From the IMG/VR virus record IMGVR_UViG_3300029533_000034: a stretch of 64,000 nt of DNA. The stretch is one strand, 5' to 3'. How positions within the stretch are numbered: position 1 is the first letter of the stretch; each line of letters starts with the position of its first letter. A program made the position numbers and the translations under genes. Below the pieces are notes generated by a model that was not told where the DNA came from, searched no databases, and worked only from the letters and a program-made list of their open reading frames with translations. Shown here one piece after another: positions 13,631-63,593 of the stretch. This stretch comes from a virus (taxonomy: Duplodnaviria; Heunggongvirae; Uroviricota; Caudoviricetes).

Positions 13631-13939
13631 CTGGGCTGCCAGGGTTACCGGCTGGCAAAAATCCTTTCGATATTTGTTTACGCTTCCGGGGAAACCCGGA
13701 AGGGATAGTGAGGACGCAGTGTAAGCTGTTTCCGGGTCCGATTCCCGGATATCCCTTTTCACTACCGCATATGGTTTTACTTTTTTGTATTTTCATTCAG
13801 CCGTCTGCGGTCTGTGGGATTTCCCACAGAACTAAAATAACGATAACCGCCAGAAAAGGATCGGGAGACTTTATCTTCCGTGCCGGACAGCAGCGTGCGT
13901 TGGCGTGGAAACTATCGGCGTACTTTGTAGACTCCTTTC
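13631..13939 (+). ncRNA. Structured ncRNA, copy 1 (hairpin / anti-leader / hairpin / tRNA-like module / 3' domain)
   Basis: Directly downstream of a class B motif. Closely similar inverted copy at 41662-41934 and a related copy at 18944-19255. Confidence 0.75.
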
Positions 13940-13991
13940 GTGCTTGGACGCTTTTGCGTCGGGCAAAATACTTCTCCTTTCGGGGAGGGGT

Positions 13992-14049
13992 ATGGGACAG
14001 CAGGTTGTATGGTAAGCACCACCTCGGGTTCGAGTCCCGGGTGTCCCAT
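13992..14049 (+). ncRNA. tRNA-like element lacking an anticodon arm
   Basis: ATGGGACA/TGTCCCAT stem and T-arm CTCGGG-TTCGAGT-CCCGGG, with only ~23 nt between them. Confidence 0.6.
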
Positions 14050-19563: not shown

Positions 19564-19671
19564 AAACTTCTATCAAGATAACAAACAGGATAAAGACGCG
19601 GCTCCGGCTGTGTCTTTTTTTTATTTCATATTGTAGGTGCAAATAAAACACAATTGAAAGGAGATTAAACA

Positions 19672-20347: not shown

Positions 20348-20749
20348 TCCAAAACCGTCGGAATTTCCGGCGGTTTTTCTTTGGATACTCTGGTATATCA
20401 CAGGTATACTTTACACACTGCTTCATCCATGGTAAGATAAAACCATCAAAAACAAACAGCGCAGGAAGCGCAGAAAGGAAATGAGTCATGAGAACAGTAT
20501 TTACAAACCTTGAATTGCATCGCGAACGATTACACTCTGCAGATGAACTCCATCTTGAAGAGTTAAAAGTTGTGCCTTGCAGTTTAATGCCGTAAGTACG
20601 CCCGGATCTTTTCTTTTCCGTGTATTACCGTTTCATTTTCTGCCAAGGCAGGGAATCGGAACGGTATTTTTATATGCAGAATTTTTTGAAAGTACCGTAT
20701 TACCGTTTTGGAGTAGTACGGTACTTTTGTATTTTGGGAGGAAAAGATC

Positions 20750-20975: not shown

Positions 20976-21050
20976 CGTTCCATCAAACTAACAGGAATAG
21001 GTGGCCGGCCTTTCAAGCCGGAGATGCGGGTTCGAGTCCCGTTGGGACGA
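20976..21050 (+). tRNA. tRNA-Glu(TTC)
   Basis: CGTTCCA/TGGGACG acceptor, CCGGC-CTTTCAA-GCCGG, GCGGG-TTCGAGT-CCCGT. Confidence 0.85.
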
Positions 21051-21054
21051 TTTT

Positions 21055-21126
21055 GGTCCGTTGGACAAAAGGGAAAGTCGCGTGCCCCTCAAGCACGAAG
21101 AACAGGTTCGATTCCTGTACGGATCA
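21055..21126 (+). tRNA. tRNA-Glu(CTC), atypical C33
   Basis: GGTCCGT/ACGGATC acceptor, CGTGC-CCCTCAA-GCACG, ACAGG-TTCGATT-CCTGT. Confidence 0.75.
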
Positions 21127-21191
21127 GTGTGTGTGTAGCTCAAATGGCAGAGCAGCGGATTGTGGTTCCGCTTGTTGCGGGTTCGAGTCCC

Positions 21192-21476
21192 GTGATACCT
21201 CACCGGGCAATAAAGAGCATTGGCCGGCGCTTCCCATTCTTTAGGGCCGGGAGTACCAGTGCCTACTGACAAACTATTACGCTGCTACAGGTTTAGCTCC
21301 CCGTCCCGCAGGACGGTTCACCACACAAGAGCTGCCAACAGGCAGGCGCGATATGGTATCTTCGACAACGGCAGGAACTTTTGCCTTGCCGTGCCACCAC
21401 CCCCTTACTGCCCTTGCGGGTTTATACGGGTGTGGATTTTATTTACAGTCACACAGGTTTACAGTTACATTTATAC
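21192..21476 (-). ncRNA. Putative TnpB omegaRNA scaffold
   Basis: GC-rich structured region 3' of tnpB. An internal GATACC can pair with the terminal GGTATC (pseudoknot-like). Confidence 0.6.
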
Positions 21477-22895
21477 TTAAGCGGCTTTTTCACCGCTGCT
21501 GTATAACAACGTCAAAAGGGTATCCAGTGTACGCATCGGCACCGGAGGGAGTTTCGGGCAGCCATCCAGCTTCTCATACTCCCGGAGGAAGAACCGTGCC
21601 CCGATGTTATACGATGCATTGAGATCACAGTTGTATATCTTCCCGTTCTGGAACTTACATACACTGTAGTTATACTTTTTGTTACCGTGTTCGTAGTGGT
21701 AAACACTGCGGCGGTTGGTGGTGCCGCTTCCGTCAAAGGCGTACTTTGAGGTGCCCCATGCACAGACGCGGGAGATCCGCATACCCATGCGGTGCGCCTG
21801 CAGCTCCACTCTGGACTGCACATCGTTGGCACGCCACATATGGATACGTTCGCGGTACTTTCTGCCTTTCTTTTTACCAGTAAAGTCAAGGTACTCGAAC
21901 ACGATGCAGTCCACATCGTATGCGACTGCGGTATCCATGATGGCTTTTGCCGTGTCAATGGACAGCTGCTGGTTGGCAGATGTGATGGCACGGTAGATGT
22001 TTTTGCTTTTCTTTCCCGCCTGCTGGTACATGCGCTTGCGGTTGATCCTGCGGTTCAGACGGTCTTCATCACGGCCGAGGTGGATGACACCCCTGGCATG
22101 GACAGTACCGTCTGCCGTAAGGACGGACCACGAAGCAGGTGCATTGATCCCGAGGTCTACCACAAGGATGCGGTATTTTAACGGGCATTCATTCTGCACC
22201 AGCTGGCGTTTCTCTTCAAAGCAGAAACGGACACGGTATTTCTCTTTGACTTTTTCCACCACCGGGGAAAGGAGTTTTCTTGTTTTTGACATCTTTGCGA
22301 TATACTCAGACTCGGACTTATTGATACGGAACGCGTACCAGTCCCACTTCGTGCCGTCATACAGTTTGAGTTCCATGACACCTTCACTGAAATTAAGCCT
22401 GCGCTCCTGCTTATAGAAAGTAAGCTCGTATATCGTTGGAAACCCCATCTTCGGTTCTGCGCCTCTTTCCGCAGGGGAAAGTGCCTCCCAGTTCTTATGG
22501 TTGGACTTGTATGAACGGACGATGCCTAATGCATCTGCAACGATTGCCCGCCTTGTGTATGACGGCATGTATGGAAACTTTTCGTCAAACTCCGGGTACT
22601 TTGCAATGCTGTCCTTTGTTGTATGGATCAGCACTTCACATCTGCTTTTCATCTCAAGGGACTGCAGACCTTTCAGATTTTCCCACTCTTTAAGGAATAA
22701 CTCTGCACAGAACTTTAATGCGTCAAGGCATACTTTCCTTGTAGCACGCATGAGCGATTCATCTACCCTGCGGCTACCGGTAACTTCGCCTTTTTCTGTG
22801 ACAAGCTGGCTTTTAATATCTACAACGTAGCAGGTATGGATCGTCATTGGTTTCGGCTGCGATGTTGCCTTTGTTGCTGTTTTCTGTTCTGCCAT
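21477..22895 (-). CDS. tnpB: TnpB-family RNA-guided nuclease
   Basis: RuvC-I VDLG, RuvC-II VFEYL and RuvC-III NCDLNAS all intact. GGAGG RBS and class B motif upstream. Confidence 0.9.
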   Translation of the reverse strand: MAEQKTATKATSQPKPMTIHTCYVVDIKSQLVTEKGEVTGSRRVDESLMRATRKVCLDALKFCAELFLKEWENLKGLQSLEMKSRCEVLIHTTKDSIAKYPEFDEKFPYMPSYTRRAIVADALGIVRSYKSNHKNWEALSPAERGAEPKMGFPTIYELTFYKQERRLNFSEGVMELKLYDGTKWDWYAFRINKSESEYIAKMSKTRKLLSPVVEKVKEKYRVRFCFEEKRQLVQNECPLKYRILVVDLGINAPASWSVLTADGTVHARGVIHLGRDEDRLNRRINRKRMYQQAGKKSKNIYRAITSANQQLSIDTAKAIMDTAVAYDVDCIVFEYLDFTGKKKGRKYRERIHMWRANDVQSRVELQAHRMGMRISRVCAWGTSKYAFDGSGTTNRRSVYHYEHGNKKYNYSVCKFQNGKIYNCDLNASYNIGARFFLREYEKLDGCPKLPPVPMRTLDTLLTLLYSSGEKAA

Positions 22896-23224
22896 CGGTT
22901 ATTCCTCCTTCCCTTTGTGGCTTATTTACCCTTACAGTATGTATATTGCGCCATTTAAAAAATCGTCAAAGGATTTTGGAAAGTTTTTTAATTTTTTTCA
23001 AAAAAGTTTACGGAAACGTAAAACAGCAGACAGAATCGCCAGAATACATGGGAAATACCTGCCCGAAAGAAAAGAAAAACAGCCTGAAACATGGCTGGTA
23101 ATTAAAATGACTTACTGACGGAAGCTTAGTGCTGTGCGGTACCCTTACAGGGTATCGCAGTCCCCGGGCGATTCCATCGACACAGGGCTTGCACACTTAG
23201 GGTCTTCGATCATGCACCTCATAT

Positions 23225-23306
23225 GCATCAGTGGCGGAAAGGCATACGCATGCGGTTTAAGCCCGCACGCCGGAATGGATTGAGGGTTCAAATCCCTCCT
23301 GATGCA
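23225..23306 (+). tRNA. tRNA-Leu(TAA)
   Basis: GCATCAG/CTGATGC, TGCGG-TTTAAGC-CCGCA, extended variable region. Confidence 0.8.
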
Positions 23307-23312
23307 CTTTTT

Positions 23313-23384
23313 CTCCGCATAGTTCAGGGGACAGAATACCAGGCTACGAACCGGGAGCCGCAGGTTCGATTCCTGCTGTGGAGA
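23313..23384 (+). tRNA. tRNA-Arg(ACG)
   Basis: CTCCGCA/TGTGGAG, CTACGAA loop, GCAGG-TTCGATT-CCTGC. Confidence 0.8.
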
Positions 23385-23389
23385 TTAAT

Positions 23390-23462
23390 GTCGGAATGGC
23401 GCAATGGAAGACGCGGGATACTCAAAATATCTTTCCTGCGGGTTCGAATCCCGCTTCCGACA
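23390..23462 (+). tRNA. tRNA-Leu(CAA) with short variable loop
   Basis: GTCGGAA/TTCCGAC, GGATA-CTCAAAA-TATCT, 5-nt variable loop. Confidence 0.8.
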
Positions 23463-23466
23463 CTAT

Positions 23467-23547
23467 GCCGGTGCATCCGAAAGGCACAGGAGCCTGCCCT
23501 AGAAGCAGGTGGCGAGCAGCTTGCGGGTTCGAATCCCGCCGCCGGTA
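23467..23547 (+). tRNA. Atypical tRNA, TAG anticodon on a Ser-like body
   Basis: GCCGGTG/CGCCGGT, CCTGC-CCTAGAA-GCAGG, C8 and C33. Followed by a terminator. Confidence 0.65.
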
Positions 23548-23589
23548 CTACAAAAAAAGAGGGAAACGATCCCTCTTTTTCTTGTGTTT

Positions 23590-27166: not shown

Positions 27167-27548
27167 AAACTGTGTTTCCTAATTGGAGGAAGAAATTAAA
27201 GGCTCGATTCCTTTTGCAGTTTAACTCTGTTCGAACGATACAAGAACAGAGATCTTATTTATTGTCCTCAATTTTTGGGCGGTTATCCGTCCGGCATCCA
27301 TCCGGTGGGGGGAGCACGGAATGTAAATTCTGTGTAGGGGTGGTTCGACTCCATCTGGATGTCATTCTGTAGGTCCCATATAAGCCTACAGAACTTTTCC
27401 TAATTACTTACATCCAACGCTGCTGTGGCAGGACATGTTTGTGTGTTGCGGGAATCAAAACCCGCCGTTGGTTTACTCACCAGGGAAATACATTTTCCGG
27501 AAACCTAAACCTTGCAACTATTTCCGGGTTCGACTCCCGGCTGGTGAG
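27167..27548 (+). ncRNA. Tandem of three tRNA-like modules (27167-27222, 27293-27364, 27476-27548) with intervening hairpins, in the clpX leader
   Basis: Each has an 8-bp closing stem stacked on a 5-bp T-arm with a (T/C)TCGA(C/T)T loop. Directly downstream of a class B motif. Confidence 0.65.
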
Positions 27549-27689
27549 CTCGGAGGGTATATGCTCTCCAAACAACCATTGACGATATGGCTTTTGGGAT
27601 TCCTCCGTCTGCAGATCCAGCTAATCTGCGAAAAGAATCCCTGTTTTTGAAGAGACTAAGAAAATATCAATACAGAGGAGAAGAAAGAA

Positions 27690-31307: not shown

Positions 31308-31467
31308 TCCACGAGACACTTTTCTTGTGGACCTTCTTAAAGTATATTGTTTTCGCGCCCTTGTTTTTAAGACACGGCATTATGCAGGGCGCGGGAGAGG
31401 ATCTTGCAGATATGACATTTGTTTGGTGAAAATGGTCTGCCTCCCGGTTCGAGTCCGGGGAGATCCT
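31308..31467 (+). ncRNA. Modular ncRNA with tRNA-like module (31398-31467) in the recG leader
   Basis: Hairpin, pyrimidine-rich segment, hairpin, then AGGATCT/AGATCCT stem with T-arm CCGG-TTCGAGT-CCGG. Confidence 0.6.
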
Positions 31468-31544
31468 TTTGGCAGGATTACATTCTTATAGGAATTGTTT
31501 AATAGTTTGGCGGACAGGATGGCTAATTCATGTTCATATTTACA

Positions 31545-46843: not shown

Positions 46844-47194
46844 ATGAAGGTATCAGAAGTAAGAATTATACCGGTGAAATCCGGTAATGGATCAACAAAG
46901 GCATATGCTTCAATTAACTTAGACGGGGTATTCGCAGTCAATGATATCCGTGTCGTTGAGGGGAAGAAGGGATTATTTATTTCCCTCCCAAACCGTAAAG
47001 GTAAAGATAAGGATGGCAATGAGAAATATTATGATATTGCCTTCCCGACAACTGCCGAACTCCGTAAGGAGATTAGTGATGCTGTTATTGCTAAGTACAA
47101 TGAGACATTGCAGTCTCAGCCACAGTCGAATGCTGACGGAGCTTCGCAGCCTGCAGATGATGATGATCCGTTCTCAGGTGTAGCAGGATGGTAA
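46844..47194 (+). CDS. spoVG: SpoVG-family nucleic acid-binding protein with acidic tail
   Basis: KAYASINLDGVFAVNDIRVVEGKKGLFISLP...YYDIAFP. Confidence 0.9.
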   Translation: MKVSEVRIIPVKSGNGSTKAYASINLDGVFAVNDIRVVEGKKGLFISLPNRKGKDKDGNEKYYDIAFPTTAELRKEISDAVIAKYNETLQSQPQSNADGASQPADDDDPFSGVAGW

Positions 47195-47283
47195 GAAAGA
47201 AAAGGAGGGCTTCGGCTCTTCTTTTTTTTTTTCATATTAAAGATGTAAAACAAATATTTCAAATTCGAAAGGAGAAAACAATT

Positions 47284-48069
47284 ATGGTAAACAGAAATGA
47301 AAGATATTGGAAGAACAAAGGGGAAAGAGCAGCTGCCGCAAAGAATCATCTGGCTTATGTTTCAGAGAAATATAAAGAAGAGATCAGCGAGCAGGTGGTA
47401 AATACTGTCATGTACGATGCCCGAGTGATGCAGAGATCAGATAAGAGTGGGAAACCACGGCAATTTTTTTTGTCAGCAGATACAGTAACAGCTATTTTTA
47501 CCGCTAAGCGTAGCAAAGATACCGGTAAAGTGGCAGCGTTGAATTTTGCGTCATTCAAAAATCCCGGCGGAATGTTTCTTGCTGGAAGCAAGGCACAGGA
47601 AGAATGCCTTTGTATGGATTCAACACTGTATCCGGTACTTAACAGCTTCCGTGGAACATATTACGAACCAAATAAAAAGCTTTTGAATCGGTCATTGTAT
47701 ACAGATCGCGCATTGTATACGCCAGATGTCGTTTTTGAAAACGAGGAGTGTACGGTCAAAGCAGACATCATAACCTGTGCTGCGCCAAATAAGTATGCCG
47801 CGCAGAAATACCAGAAGGTCAGCGACGAGGAAAATGAGAAAGTCTTGATAAATCGGCTTCTTTTCATCCGGGATATCGTAGCCGATCAGGGTGTCGATAC
47901 ATTAATTCTCGGTGCTTTTGGCTGTGGTGTGTTTGGACAGGATCCACAGCAGGTTGCAGAACTGATGGATGAAATTTTTGGTGTTGCCTCTATTGAGAAT
48001 ATTGTGTATGCTGTACCTGGGTATGATAAAACGGCCATGGTATTTGAGAAACATTTTTCCGAGAAGTAG
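47284..48069 (+). CDS. Microbial-type PARG (TIGR02452/DUF2263 macrodomain)
   Basis: LNFASFKNPGGMFLAGSKAQEECLC, LYTPDV, ITCAAPN, LILGAFGCGVF. Confidence 0.9.
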   Translation: MVNRNERYWKNKGERAAAAKNHLAYVSEKYKEEISEQVVNTVMYDARVMQRSDKSGKPRQFFLSADTVTAIFTAKRSKDTGKVAALNFASFKNPGGMFLAGSKAQEECLCMDSTLYPVLNSFRGTYYEPNKKLLNRSLYTDRALYTPDVVFENEECTVKADIITCAAPNKYAAQKYQKVSDEENEKVLINRLLFIRDIVADQGVDTLILGAFGCGVFGQDPQQVAELMDEIFGVASIENIVYAVPGYDKTAMVFEKHFSEK

Positions 48070-50018: not shown

Positions 50019-50267
50019 GAAGAGAAAGAAGAGCCTTTTGGGGTTCTTCTTTTTTGTGTGTGCGTGGATGGCAGAGATGTAATACAAAAACACATTTGAT
50101 GGTTGTGGGAAGAAGATGGTTACTCATTTCCGAGAAATGTGCATAGTTGCAATTTTATGGCGAAAAGCCCACAGGCTTGTCTGTGGGATGAAAGCTCCCA
50201 TTTTCCACTTGATTTTTGCATAGATTTGATATACAATATATGTATAAATAGGAGGGACTTAATTCAA

Positions 50268-50438
50268 ATGGGAAGACCTAAATCAAATAACGTACAAATA
50301 AACATATCCATTCCTTTGGAGTGGAAAACAGAACTGGAGAACCTTGCGCGTATTTATTCTGTCGAGGAAGGAAAAACAGTAACTTTCCTTGATTTAATGC
50401 GCAGGGGTATCAAAGAAAAATATCAACTTGGAGAATAA
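50268..50438 (+). CDS. Small ribbon-helix-helix-like protein inside the IS
   Basis: GGAGG RBS; MGRPKSNNVQINISIPLEWK. Confidence 0.55.
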   Translation: MGRPKSNNVQINISIPLEWKTELENLARIYSVEEGKTVTFLDLMRRGIKEKYQLGE

Positions 50439-50859
50439 GATCATGGGTGACACACAGTACCACAGCGCTTCATATTGTAAATATCTGATACAGTATCACA
50501 TCATCTGGTGCCCGAAATTCAGGTTCTCTGTATTGCACGACAACGTAGATGTTGCATTAAAGAAAATACTGCAGGAAATATGTAATAAATACAAATATCA
50601 TATAAAAGCACTTGAAGTAATGTCGGACCATATCCACATATTTGTGGATGTCCCACAGACGGTTGCCCCATGTGATGTCGTAAGGACGCTGAAAAGCATA
50701 AGTGCCATTGAATTGTTCAAAGCATATCCACAGTTAAAGCGTTTCTATGCAAAGTGCGGAGTTTTGTGGTCAAGAGGATATTTTATTTCAACAGTCGGAC
50801 ACATAAGTGAAGCTACAGTGATCAAATATATCGAGGAGCAGAAAACGAATGGAAGCTGA
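50428..50859 (+). CDS. tnpA: IS200/IS605 Y1 HUH transposase
   Basis: YHIIWCPKFR, DHIHIF, LWSRGYF, IKYIEEQ. Confidence 0.95.
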   Translation: MENKIMGDTQYHSASYCKYLIQYHIIWCPKFRFSVLHDNVDVALKKILQEICNKYKYHIKALEVMSDHIHIFVDVPQTVAPCDVVRTLKSISAIELFKAYPQLKRFYAKCGVLWSRGYFISTVGHISEATVIKYIEEQKTNGS

Positions 50860-53042
50860 CGAGTACAAAAAACTTCTGAAAAAATTCCATAAACTTTCTG
50901 ACCGGCATATCCTGGTCGCTGAGGCGGATATGTCCTATCCTGATGTGCAGAAGGTCGTCAACCTTTCCAACAGGATCCGGAAAGCCGGCAATGAGCTTGT
51001 AGGTGTCATGAAAAAGAATTACGAACAGCTCATGCGTACCAAAAAGTACCGCAAGCTGCTTCAGCTGTATGGTTCCACTGAGGACAAGAAGAAACGCAAA
51101 ACATATGCCGGACAGCTCAATGAGATGCAGGAACAGTACAATCTTACAAAAGAGTCCTGCCGGACGTTAATGATACCTATTGGTAAAAAGTATGGCATTG
51201 ATGCCATATTTGCCCTCACGAAAGCCGAGGATGTATGGCACGGCGTTGAAAAATGTCTTTATGGGAATGGGAAAACGCTTCATTTCTCCAAATATGGGGA
51301 TCTGCCATGCATCCGGGCAAAGCAGATCAACCGAGGTATCCCGATGTCTGTAAAAAACAATGAACTGAAGTTTAAGCTTGGGAAATTAGTTTTCGGGATA
51401 CAGGTCAAAGACCGGTTCCAGACAGATGAAGTCAATGTTGTCCTGGATTATCTGGCACAGCCGGAAGTCATAGACAACAAGGCAGTAAAGACTCTTCAGG
51501 ATGAAGCGTGCTGTATCAGCACGTACCGGCCTTGCTACGCAACGCTCGTACCGAAATTCATCCGTGGGAAATACAGGGTATACCTGCATCTCGTCATTGA
51601 GGGCAGGGCAAAACCTAAATACGACAGATTTGGCAATCCCCGACCTAAATACGGCACAGGTATTATTGGCGCTGATATCGGCACACAGACGGTGGCTTAT
51701 ACTTCTGACACAGAGGCAGGACTTAAGAACCTGTCGGAAAGAGGCAACAGCATACAGAAGTCTGAACATATGGAAAGACTTTATTACCGTGCTATGGACC
51801 GTAGCAGACGTACGATGAACCCGCAGAATTATAATGCCGATGGCACCATTAAGAAAGGGAAGAAGAAGTGGACTTACTCCAGACGTTACAAAAAGCTGAA
51901 AACAAAGCACACGGAACTCTGCCGCATAAATGCCATAAACAGGAAGCTTGCCATAAATGAGGATGTAAACCACCTGCGTTGTCTCGGAGATACATTTGTC
52001 ACGGAACCTAAAAATGCAGCCAGGCTCATGAAACGTTCGAAAGAGACAACCGTTAATAACAAAGGCAAAATTAACAGGAAGAAACGTTTTGGAAAGTCGG
52101 TAAAGAACCGGTGCCCGGGCGGTTTCCAGACTGCCGTGGAAAATAAGTTCAAAACATCCGGCGGTACATATATAGAAGTACCCAATAATTACAGGGCAAG
52201 CCAGTTTGACCACACGGCAGATGATTACATAAATTAGAGTTGTAGAAAGGATATATGAATGATTCTAACAGAACATGAACAGGTAATTATTAACAATATG
52301 AGACACCCATCAATTCGTACAGTAACGGCGAGCAAATCGTATAAAGATTTATCCGATGAAGAGCTTACTTCACTAATTGGCAAAATAGATGACTATGTGA
52401 ATGAAATTGGTGAAACACAGAGAGCTTTCGGTAATTATGATGAATTTTACGTATTAGAATTTGATTCGATTAAGGCTCATCTAGTAGATGAATGTCAACG
52501 CAGAAAAATTATGCTTAGAATGCAAGGCGATAAATTTGACGTTTATCGAAAAGAATATAATGAAATAGTAAATAGCGCAATGAATCATCCTGTTGGATGC
52601 AGCCAGACTCATGAAACGGGCGAAAGAGACAACTGTTAATAACAAAGGCAAGATCAACAGGAAGAAACGTTTTGGAAAGTCGGTAAAGAACCGGTGCCCG
52701 GGCGGTTTCCAGGCTGCCGTGGAAAATAAGTTCAAAACATCCGGCGGTACATACATAGAAGTACCCAATAATTACAGAGCAAGCCAGTATGATCACACGG
52801 CAGATGATTACATTAAAAAGAAACTGTCTGACAGGATGTATAAACTTGCAGACGGAATACTGGTACAGAGGGACTGGTACTCATCATTCCTGTTGTACTG
52901 CTACAATTACAGAACCAATGATATAGATAAAAAGAAATGTGCTGCAGAATTTAAAAAATGCTACAGCATGGAAAAGGATTTCATTGAATGGATTAAAAAA
53001 CATAAAATCAAGGTATTAAACATTGGAATTAAAATAGCATAA
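50849..53042 (+). pseudogene. tnpB: tnpB split into 50849-52237 and 52593-53042
   Basis: RuvC-I GADIG and RuvC-II VTEP lie in the first part, RuvC-III QRDWYS only in the second. A 217-bp segment is present twice. Confidence 0.85.
52259..52639 (+). CDS. AT-rich hypothetical gene captured inside tnpB
   Basis: AAAGGA upstream; lies between the duplicated tnpB segments. Confidence 0.55.
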   Translation: MILTEHEQVIINNMRHPSIRTVTASKSYKDLSDEELTSLIGKIDDYVNEIGETQRAFGNYDEFYVLEFDSIKAHLVDECQRRKIMLRMQGDKFDVYRKEYNEIVNSAMNHPVGCSQTHETGERDNC

Positions 53043-53367
53043 CTAAAACGCATTAGGGAGACTGACTATACTTCCTTGCTGTAAAGCAGAAATTTACCGA
53101 AACACAACTAGCTTTCTTTACATAATAATGTGGCCTTTGGGCTGCTTGGTAATAAAAGTTCTTACTCAAACAGACTTATACCTGTATTCCAAAGCCTATG
53201 AAAATATTCGTATGGTGCACGATTACAGGCTAAACTTGGCAGTAAGAACCCCACAGGCTTGCCTGTGGGAGTAGTCAGTGTAAAATGAGAAAAAGAGGGT
53301 CCAATGGGAAAACTTTTTTGTTTCATATTAAAGATGTAAACAAAAACGTATCTGAAAGGAGAAAAAT

Positions 53368-62899: not shown

Positions 62900-63593
62900 T
62901 TGTGGGGCGGGTTCCTCCACAAACCTCCTAATTTAATAATATCGTTTCTGCACCACGTTCACGACGTTATAAATTTATGGCGAAAAACCCATAGGCTTGC
63001 CTGTGGGATGAAAGCCCTTTTTCCTACTTTCTTTTTGTATAAATTAAACATATAACAGTATGAACAGAAAGAATATACATAAATATCGTACAAAAAACAC
63101 TTAAAGGGGTCAAATACATTGAGGAGCAGACTGTTGTACTGCTACGATCACAGAACCAAAGATATAGATAAAAATGAAATGTGCTGCAGAATTTAAAAAA
63201 TGCTACGGCATGGAAAAGGAATTCATTGAATGGATAAAAGAAAATAAAATCAAAGTGCTGAACAGCGGAATTAAAACCGCATAACTATATATCCGTAGGG
63301 AGACTGACTATGCTTCCTTGTCGCCAGACAGAAATTTACCGAAAAACAACTAGCTTTCTTACATAATAATGTGGCCGTAGGGCTGCATGGTAATAAAGTC
63401 CTTGCTTAAAACAGACTATACCTGTATTCCAAAGCCTGCAAATGGTGTACGATTACAGGCAAAACTTGAGAGTAAGAACCCCACAGGCTTGCCTGTGGGA
63501 GTAGTCAGTTGTAGTGCAGGAGGGGAGCCACAGGACTGTAGTTGTCTATGCAGAAATGGCCTGTTCATCCGGTTCGAGTCCGGAGGATTCCTT
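62900..63593 (+). ncRNA. Modular ncRNA with tRNA-like module (63521-63593), interrupted by a mini-IS
   Basis: Class B motif, hairpin, ACCTCCT segment, stem CTGCAC/GTGCAG spanning the mini-IS, then T-arm TCCGG-TTCGAGT-CCGGA. Confidence 0.55.
62979..63508 (+). mobile_element. Non-autonomous miniature IS605 derivative
   Basis: TTTAT then left-end hairpin; tnpA 3' fragment joined to tnpB 3' fragment; omegaRNA and right end GTAGTCAG. Confidence 0.9.

Follow-up and report, generated by a model that had tools for sequence, protein, structure and literature searches.

A tnpB-only IS605-type element that splits a tRNA-His gene and is predicted to target the uninterrupted alleles of that gene

Introduction

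An IS605-type element of 2,017 bp (21192-23208, minus strand) splits a tRNA-His gene in the window, the 64,000-nucleotide stretch of DNA analysed here. It is probable, judging from sequence comparisons, that this is a tnpA-less IS605 insertion whose TnpB, with a guide against the tRNA T-arm and the TAM ATGAC, cuts the uninterrupted tRNA-His gene of sister replicons, and that the element persists by homing or exclusion. It would most likely be a tnpB-only member of the IS605 group driving against element-free alleles, a behaviour that is already known, and such selfish drive, rather than domestication, is the likely explanation. The element is set above an ordinary insertion by its natural pair of filled and empty alleles at a universally conserved site and by a testable code connecting guide, residue and TAM. 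The pair is widespread and offers a means of testing the published model of TnpB drive at an unusually conserved site.

Filled and empty alleles of the tRNA-His gene

The tRNA cluster (20976-23548) comprises Glu(TTC), Glu(CTC), the interrupted His(GTG), Leu(TAA), Arg(ACG), Leu(CAA) and Leu(TAG), all on the plus strand. The two tRNA-Glu genes lie upstream of the insertion (20976-21127), while the last four genes (23225-23548) lie downstream and adjoin tRNA-His in empty alleles. The 5' part of tRNA-His, positions 1-63, occupies 21129-21191 and, in empty alleles, runs on directly into the 3' part. The right-end cleavage motif of the element, TCAC (21192-21195, minus strand), supplies G64-U65 of the T-stem from its plus strand, and tRNA-His sequence spans 21129 to T65 at 21193, the end of the T-arm. 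An earlier note on this DNA had described a tRNA-His lacking its 3' acceptor strand, with that strand about 2 kb away; the displaced strand and discriminator, CATGCAC+C, were seen at 23211-23218 (plus strand).

The earlier note had also predicted how an insertion-free site would be joined, and empty alleles joining 21192/21193 to 23210/23211 were found in five of the eight runs compared (X7, X10, X12, X16 and X17), a proportion that is not a frequency, as the runs were picked and low-share ones included to expose empty alleles. The five empty alleles come from five studies, although X10, X12 and X17 share variants and may be one lineage. The empty allele of X16 skips 2,017 bases; no target duplication is present at the empty sites, and one left-flank base differs. 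The filled state is documented across both junctions in X6, at the left junction in X4 and at the right junction in L014 and L015. A pattern search for the tRNA-His gene found no relative in GTDB or viral contigs, a scan of metagenomes returned two filled alleles only, and no empty site was found for the relative L001.

The assignment of the minus-strand end to an IS605-type hairpin followed by TCAC, made in the earlier note, is borne out by relatives. TCAC is the right end in 92 of 95 distinct right ends of the family, and all nine aligned scaffolds of the closest subfamily end in GAGGYATCAC and diverge beyond it. The right end carries the DNA guide GAAG and a subterminal hairpin (21203-21233, minus strand), and the left end the DNA guide CAAG (23191-23188) and a second subterminal hairpin (together 23162-23191, minus strand). 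This layout matches relatives at both ends; the hairpins alone fold no better than shuffles (z -0.3 and -0.2). An offset register, with target ATGA^C and element T...TCA, was considered and rejected, as family ends read TCAC, the bases that follow it vary, and left flanks obey the guide rule described below.

The interrupted tRNA-His

ARAGORN at default settings called the rejoined tRNA-His and left the interrupted gene uncalled. The rejoined tRNA forms 7/7 acceptor pairs, while the interrupted form, borrowing the element end as a substitute 3' strand (21192-21201, plus strand), could form 5/7, with U2-C71 and G7-G66 mismatched and C73 retained. With the Rfam tRNA model the interrupted gene nevertheless reaches 41.6 bits (gathering score 29), because the element end partly substitutes for the missing acceptor strand. 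This mimicry of a tRNA 3' strand is likely a coincidence, since the identical motif is conserved in relatives outside tRNAs, and weak residual function of the interrupted tRNA is possible. No intron family was detected in it at E values up to 1, and the element lies antisense to it, which leaves no room for rescue by splicing. The filled allele probably yields no tRNA-His or a crippled one, with the host's own tRNA-His making up for it. An integrase-type tRNA island was rejected as a description of the locus: only tnpB lies inside, and the tRNA 3' strand is displaced rather than duplicated.

Bacterial tRNA-His genes normally encode G at position -1. Even the intact gene is atypical here, since this position (window 21128) is T instead, and likewise in the empty alleles as far as they were listed. 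Among its neighbours, the variable arm of Leu(CAA) at 23390 is short and the D arm of tRNA-Glu(TTC) is unusual. T-arms are also present in other tRNA-like sequences, at 13987-14048, 27477-27549, 31398-31468 and 63500-63590, which ARAGORN calls only at a relaxed threshold or never.

The TnpB protein and its predicted guide

The tnpB gene (21477-22895, minus strand) encodes 472 amino acids, with the triad D247/E334/D424, Ser84 in the second REC helix and no zinc-finger cysteine pairs. The intact D-E-D triad described earlier holds up, as all three residues are invariant across 29 aligned sequences, and so does the absence of tnpA from the insert, with no tnpA-like sequence found within the element. 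The protein scores 55.5 bits (E 5.5e-15) against the NCBIfam model NF040570 (guided_TnpB), below its curated cut-off of 100, and by this measure belongs to a clade related to, but outside, that model. It matches PF27142 among precomputed hits, with no match in a scan of the Pfam library. A structure model (pLDDT 87.6) has the TnpB/Cas12f fold and aligns with ISDra2 TnpB (8h1j) at Z 16.0 over 332 residues (rmsd 8.2). Among solved structures, searching by sequence found a single weak match, to Cas12f. The identical protein occurs on 157 contigs.

The omegaRNA scaffold (21192-21440, minus strand, 5' limit approximate) is indicated by covariation in nine sequences, with compensatory change at 36 of 64 predicted pairs; single-sequence folding gave a z of -1.78. 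A GATRC/GYATC helix found in the scaffold is nested in the predicted model and is therefore no evidence of a pseudoknot. The RuvC D-E-D triad, the TnpB/Cas12f fold of the model and a predicted structured omegaRNA ending at the right end are features expected of an active RNA-guided TnpB, whose TAM-dependent DNA cleavage is here a prediction.

TnpB guides derive from the DNA flanking the right end, according to the accessible part of a review (PMC13565253). From this origin and the conserved TCAC at the scaffold end, the guide is predicted to be GGGACTCGAACCCGCAACAA (21172-21191, minus strand), antisense to the T-arm and variable loop, which agrees with the earlier note. The partial match to tRNA-Glu(TTC) reported there is real and has a different flank, CCAAC, that lacks the TAM, but it extends to 16 guide bases (21025-21040) rather than 14-15. 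The guide match at the filled junction has the flank ATCAC, which differs from ATGAC by one base; 17 sites of the window match with two or fewer mismatches in the seed, and none of them carries ATGAC. A tRNA-like right-end flank occurs in only one of 95 distinct flanks of the family; targeting of tRNAs is therefore not characteristic of the family.

Target recognition and a predicted residue code for the TAM

In the window, the left target pentamer (23209-23213, minus strand) is ATGAT; on the element strand, the corresponding sequence in each of the five empty alleles is ATGAC|GGG. The position-by-position rule for pairing of guide and target comes from IS608. Base 4 of the guide and the final base of the target are complementary in 52 of 55 distinct left ends of related loci (a count that includes a probable false end, L047), against a mean of 21.6 and a maximum of 34 in 10,000 shuffles; these ends are only partly independent. 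The left guide of the window, CAAG, predicts TGAC, and the flank now found there, TGAT, fits except in its final base; all 11 other left ends with a guide ending in G carry TGAC. That IS200/IS605 elements read their targets with a DNA guide located at the base of the left-end hairpin, and that the TAM covaries with this guide, is already published (Meers et al., bioRxiv 10.1101/2023.03.14.532601, available text).

The protein varies along with the target. The alignment column of Ser84 shows the top covariation with the last target base (z 10.1), and the residue at this position agrees with the flank in 33 of 36 relatives, an analysis that omits L047, L062, nine short ORFs and near-duplicates over 90% identity. 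Arg, Lys or Gln occurs with T in 18/19, Ser or Thr with C in 7/8, and Asn with A in 8/9. On a quick tree built without the residue-84 column the last target base changes at least 10 times. None of the independent pairs runs in the opposite direction; the A and T classes provide six pairs each (p 0.03-0.06) and the C class three pairs only (p 0.25). In the structure model Ser84 is part of the second long REC helix, which spans residues 79-90. In ISDra2, REC residues Y52 and S56 contact TAM position -1 (PMC10097598, in the part available), and judged by helix order in the model, the Ser84 helix would correspond to the contacting helix of ISDra2.

The empty alleles, the CAAG guide and Ser84 all point to ATGAC, which is therefore the predicted target and TAM; the TAM of ATGAT or CATGA proposed in the earlier note is probably wrong. 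The ATGAT of the window is probably a later change, either C-to-T or a one-base insertion, and may hinder excision. Intact tRNA-His alleles, matching the guide and bearing the predicted TAM, are predicted to be perfect TnpB targets, which strengthens the earlier proposal that TnpB would cut them.

The TAM could instead be ATGAT, as the left flank reads, if the element inserted into a rare A64 allele, in which case the ATGAC empty alleles of today would be immune. The window flank itself reads this way, as do five of the six other left ends found in the subfamily (L019, L020, L021, L098 and L099; L016 has ATGAA), and Arg stands at position 84 in 82 of 120 homologs. We consider this very improbable: the ATGAT relatives have the guide CAAA and Arg or Lys, whereas this element has CAAG and Ser, and an A64 allele would be mismatched at C50-A64 and is absent from the five empty alleles.

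Guide base, REC-helix residue and TAM have repeatedly changed in concert in this clade, from which it is predicted that a single residue could switch the TAM among TGAT, TGAC and TGAA. The code could allow TAMs to be called from sequence even at mutated flanks, and is perhaps more useful than the insertion itself. Residue-84 class, base 4 of the left guide and last target base co-vary across loci L016-L174, which include a close natural pair of sister loci, L132 (Ser, TTGAC) and L147 (Asn, TTGAA). Guide and flank also disagree at the last base in L041 and L062; the L041 flank, TTGAC, agrees with its protein residue, Thr, against its guide.

Promoter-like motif, mobility and decay

Upstream of tnpB (22925-23000, minus strand) lies a promoter-like motif, TTTGACG-N11-GGCGCAATAT (22970-22943). 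The earlier note had reported a class B promoter-type motif here, and it is real: 13 copies occur in the window, against 0.12 in 50 shuffles. The motif also occurs in runs without the element and is found in none of 401 genomes of the G001 family; a search of five genomes likewise found none, and no viral contig matched it. The window copies, the element-free runs and the 401 genomes assign the motif to the replicon. A simple sigma-70 scan did not list it, and the left-end sequence likewise had no match in viral contigs. It occupies the place taken by tnpA and its intergenic promoter in relatives such as L098, and a ribosome-binding site accompanies it before tnpB.

This motif had suggested domestication to the earlier note, a proposal that the sequences do not support. 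Sibling copies at other sites (X7 record 28 and X4 record 15) include the promoter motif, and since they span it, promoter capture would be a trait of a lineage that went on moving rather than of the tRNA-His locus, with the siblings themselves implying mobility in the past only. The copy in X7 record 28 ends at 21192 and 23213, has foreign flanks and an 855-bp deletion in tnpB, and comes from a run that also has an empty tRNA-His. Lack of room for tnpA is not peculiar to this locus, as 22 of 55 left ends lie less than 350 bp from tnpB. Domesticated TnpB proteins are characterized by loss of the ends, fixation at a locus and a benefit to the host; here the ends are kept, damaged copies occur, and empty alleles and siblings exist.

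The damaged copies also bear on whether the element is a passive passenger, a single insertion hitchhiking in a successful lineage with a silent or ineffective TnpB that is slowly decaying. Such an account, which we think unlikely, would fit the X7 deletion, a frameshifted variant (P0007), a variant without the region bearing E334 (P0009), the occurrence of empty alleles across five studies, and L015, in which similarity to the omegaRNA scaffold stops 54 bp inside the right end. Set against it, the triad and Ser84 are kept in 9/9 full-length or 468-aa cluster members (among the 14 of 199 members listed, plus the query), the scaffold is intact, and the promoter-like motif and ribosome-binding site are in place. 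In L015, positions 1-49 contain a hairpin with the word ATGAAAGC, shared with the end of the second IS605-type element of the window; possibly, a further element was inserted into the omegaRNA of L015 and is cut off by the contig end.

A drive against element-free alleles is the preferred reading, and the following history can be proposed for it. An ancestor in the ATGAT subfamily would have changed its left guide from CAAA to CAAG, its REC residue 84 from Arg to Ser and its target to ATGAC. Having lost tnpA and acquired a replicon promoter module, it would then have moved in trans into ATGAC at positions 64-68 of tRNA-His, on the minus strand. The left flank would afterwards have become ATGAT, perhaps impairing excision, so that the element would spread chiefly by allelic drive. 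TnpB would cut uninterrupted tRNA-His genes on sister replicon copies, leading to homing or exclusion, while self-cutting would be avoided by the single base that separates ATCAC at the filled junction from ATGAC. The replicon carries its own recA. Any drive must be incomplete, because empty alleles are still common.

Predicted reach of the guide beyond tRNA-His

Other phages, and the host itself, could also come within range of the T-arm guide. ATGAC followed by 13 seed bases was found at 120 or more viral loci (at least 120; about 140 estimated) in 89 distinct contexts, in a scan run without a control pattern and covering viruses whose hosts were not linked to that of the replicon. Where called, the matches were mostly in tRNA-Asp, -Gly and -His; 31 contexts have 16 or more matching bases, and one has 20/20. 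The TAM with 15 exact bases was present in none of 301 sampled genomes of the G001 family, a likely host family. A one-mismatch site occurred in 25 of these 301 genomes, and in 23 of the 26 sites the mismatch falls at guide position 5; nine of the 12 sites fetched were tRNA-Gly(CCC). Binding has been reported to depend only weakly on the seed (Meers et al., bioRxiv 10.1101/2023.03.14.532601, available text), so the host may not be safe from this guide.

These matches could be taken to mean that the replicon has fixed the element as a domesticated weapon whose T-arm guide cuts rival phages and plasmids. The viral sites, the lack of exact sites in the sampled genomes of a likely host family, the replicon-type promoter and a left flank that no longer matches the DNA guide are in keeping with this. 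The promoter, however, lies within mobile siblings, both ends are retained, empty and broken alleles are common, tRNA-derived flanks are nearly absent from the family, the viral scan had neither a control pattern nor a demonstrated common host, and the one-mismatch sites are a possible cost; we therefore regard the weapon as distinctly unlikely. The same doubt attaches to a fuller version, in which the element would represent a first step from transposon to weapon against mobile elements: locked by its flank, driven by a replicon promoter and cutting tRNA-Asp, -Gly and -His of many unrelated phages and rival replicons, with most host tRNAs spared by one seed mismatch and with the REC residue (Arg/Lys/Gln, Ser/Thr or Asn) setting the last TAM base (T, C or A, respectively) in step with the DNA guide.

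Relation to known systems

The element has the features of the IS1341 type, namely end hairpins with guides, a fixed TCAC, insertion 3' of the target without duplication, tnpB without tnpA, and a left guide complementary to the target, in this case to the TGAC of the empty site. The tnpA-less ISGst, an IS200/IS605 tnpB-only element, shares subterminal hairpins, the TCAC right end, DNA guides that covary with the TAM, tnpB with an omegaRNA, and predicted mobilisation in trans, as far as the available text describes it (bioRxiv 10.1101/2023.03.14.532601). Unlike ISGst, the present element encodes a TnpB of a divergent clade (PF27142, below the NF040570 cut-off, without zinc-finger cysteine pairs) with the predicted TAM ATGAC, its left flank mismatches its own guide, and a replicon promoter module replaces tnpA.

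The homing or competition proposed in the earlier note is supported by empty alleles that are predicted targets, but it is not new. TnpB drive and exclusion of rival conjugative plasmids have been published, as has enrichment of IS605 in conserved plasmid regions (Mears et al., bioRxiv 10.1101/2025.02.20.638934, in the accessible portion), and the plasmid advantage from IS605 TnpB is independent of TnpA in the accessible part of the review cited above (PMC13565253). As in the plasmid drive described in that portion of Mears et al., insertion would re-aim the guide at IS-free copies of the same replicon. Unlike the site in those plasmids, the site here is a tRNA T-arm common to unrelated phages and near-matched in bacterial chromosomes, and, unlike in those experiments, the filled and empty alleles are natural and known from sequence alone.

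ISDra2 TnpB shares the fold, a 5-nt TAM with a TGA core and a REC helix contacting position -1 (PMC10097598, in the part available), but it has 14% identity, the TAM TTGAT as opposed to the predicted ATGAC, and another scaffold. IStrons share a TnpB element inside a gene and an intact TnpB without TnpA; assignment to this group was rejected, as no match to a group I intron was found and the insert runs antisense to its host gene. TldR repressors share a TnpB origin and RNA guidance, and were likewise rejected, as this element retains its catalytic triad and its transposon ends. Phage T4 SegB, unlike this element, is protein-guided and free-standing and leaves the tRNA uninterrupted. In common with it, SegB is reportedly a selfish nuclease that favours inheritance of the tRNA gene region of a mobile element. 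A literature search covering the titles and opening lines of abstracts of mostly open-access papers found neither a TnpB element inside a tRNA gene nor a residue code for the last TAM base, and a comparable insertion is absent from the available parts of PMC12934698, PMC12056005 and PMC3119063.

The replicon and a second IS605-type element

The window encodes DnaE, NrdD, ThyA, RecA, RecG, LigA, ClpX, a CCA-adding enzyme, PARP and PARG, and no capsid or conjugation family was found among the proteins scanned against Pfam and NCBIfam. The identical TnpB is also present on a contig of 385,989 bp. Named relatives of RecA, at 67-71%, belong to Lachnospiraceae or Clostridiaceae, and plasmid and phage records gave short matches only (2-4% of the query). 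We infer that the replicon is a large extrachromosomal element of gut Clostridia, either plasmid or phage. The PARP-domain protein and a microbial PARG (869-2185 and 47188-48069) are both encoded by it. A second repeated intergenic motif, unlike the one upstream of tnpB, is found many times, at 19580-19670 and 20390-20450, with copies near 13900, 53350, 57200 and 58000.

A second, unrelated IS605-type element lies at 50170-53100 and includes a small ORF at about 50256-50438. Its tnpA (50428-50859) matches NF033573 (E 1.4e-39) and is 31% identical to the cognate TnpA of L098. Its TnpB-like gene (50849-52237) is long and broken by an insert, and a duplicated segment is present at 52593-53042.
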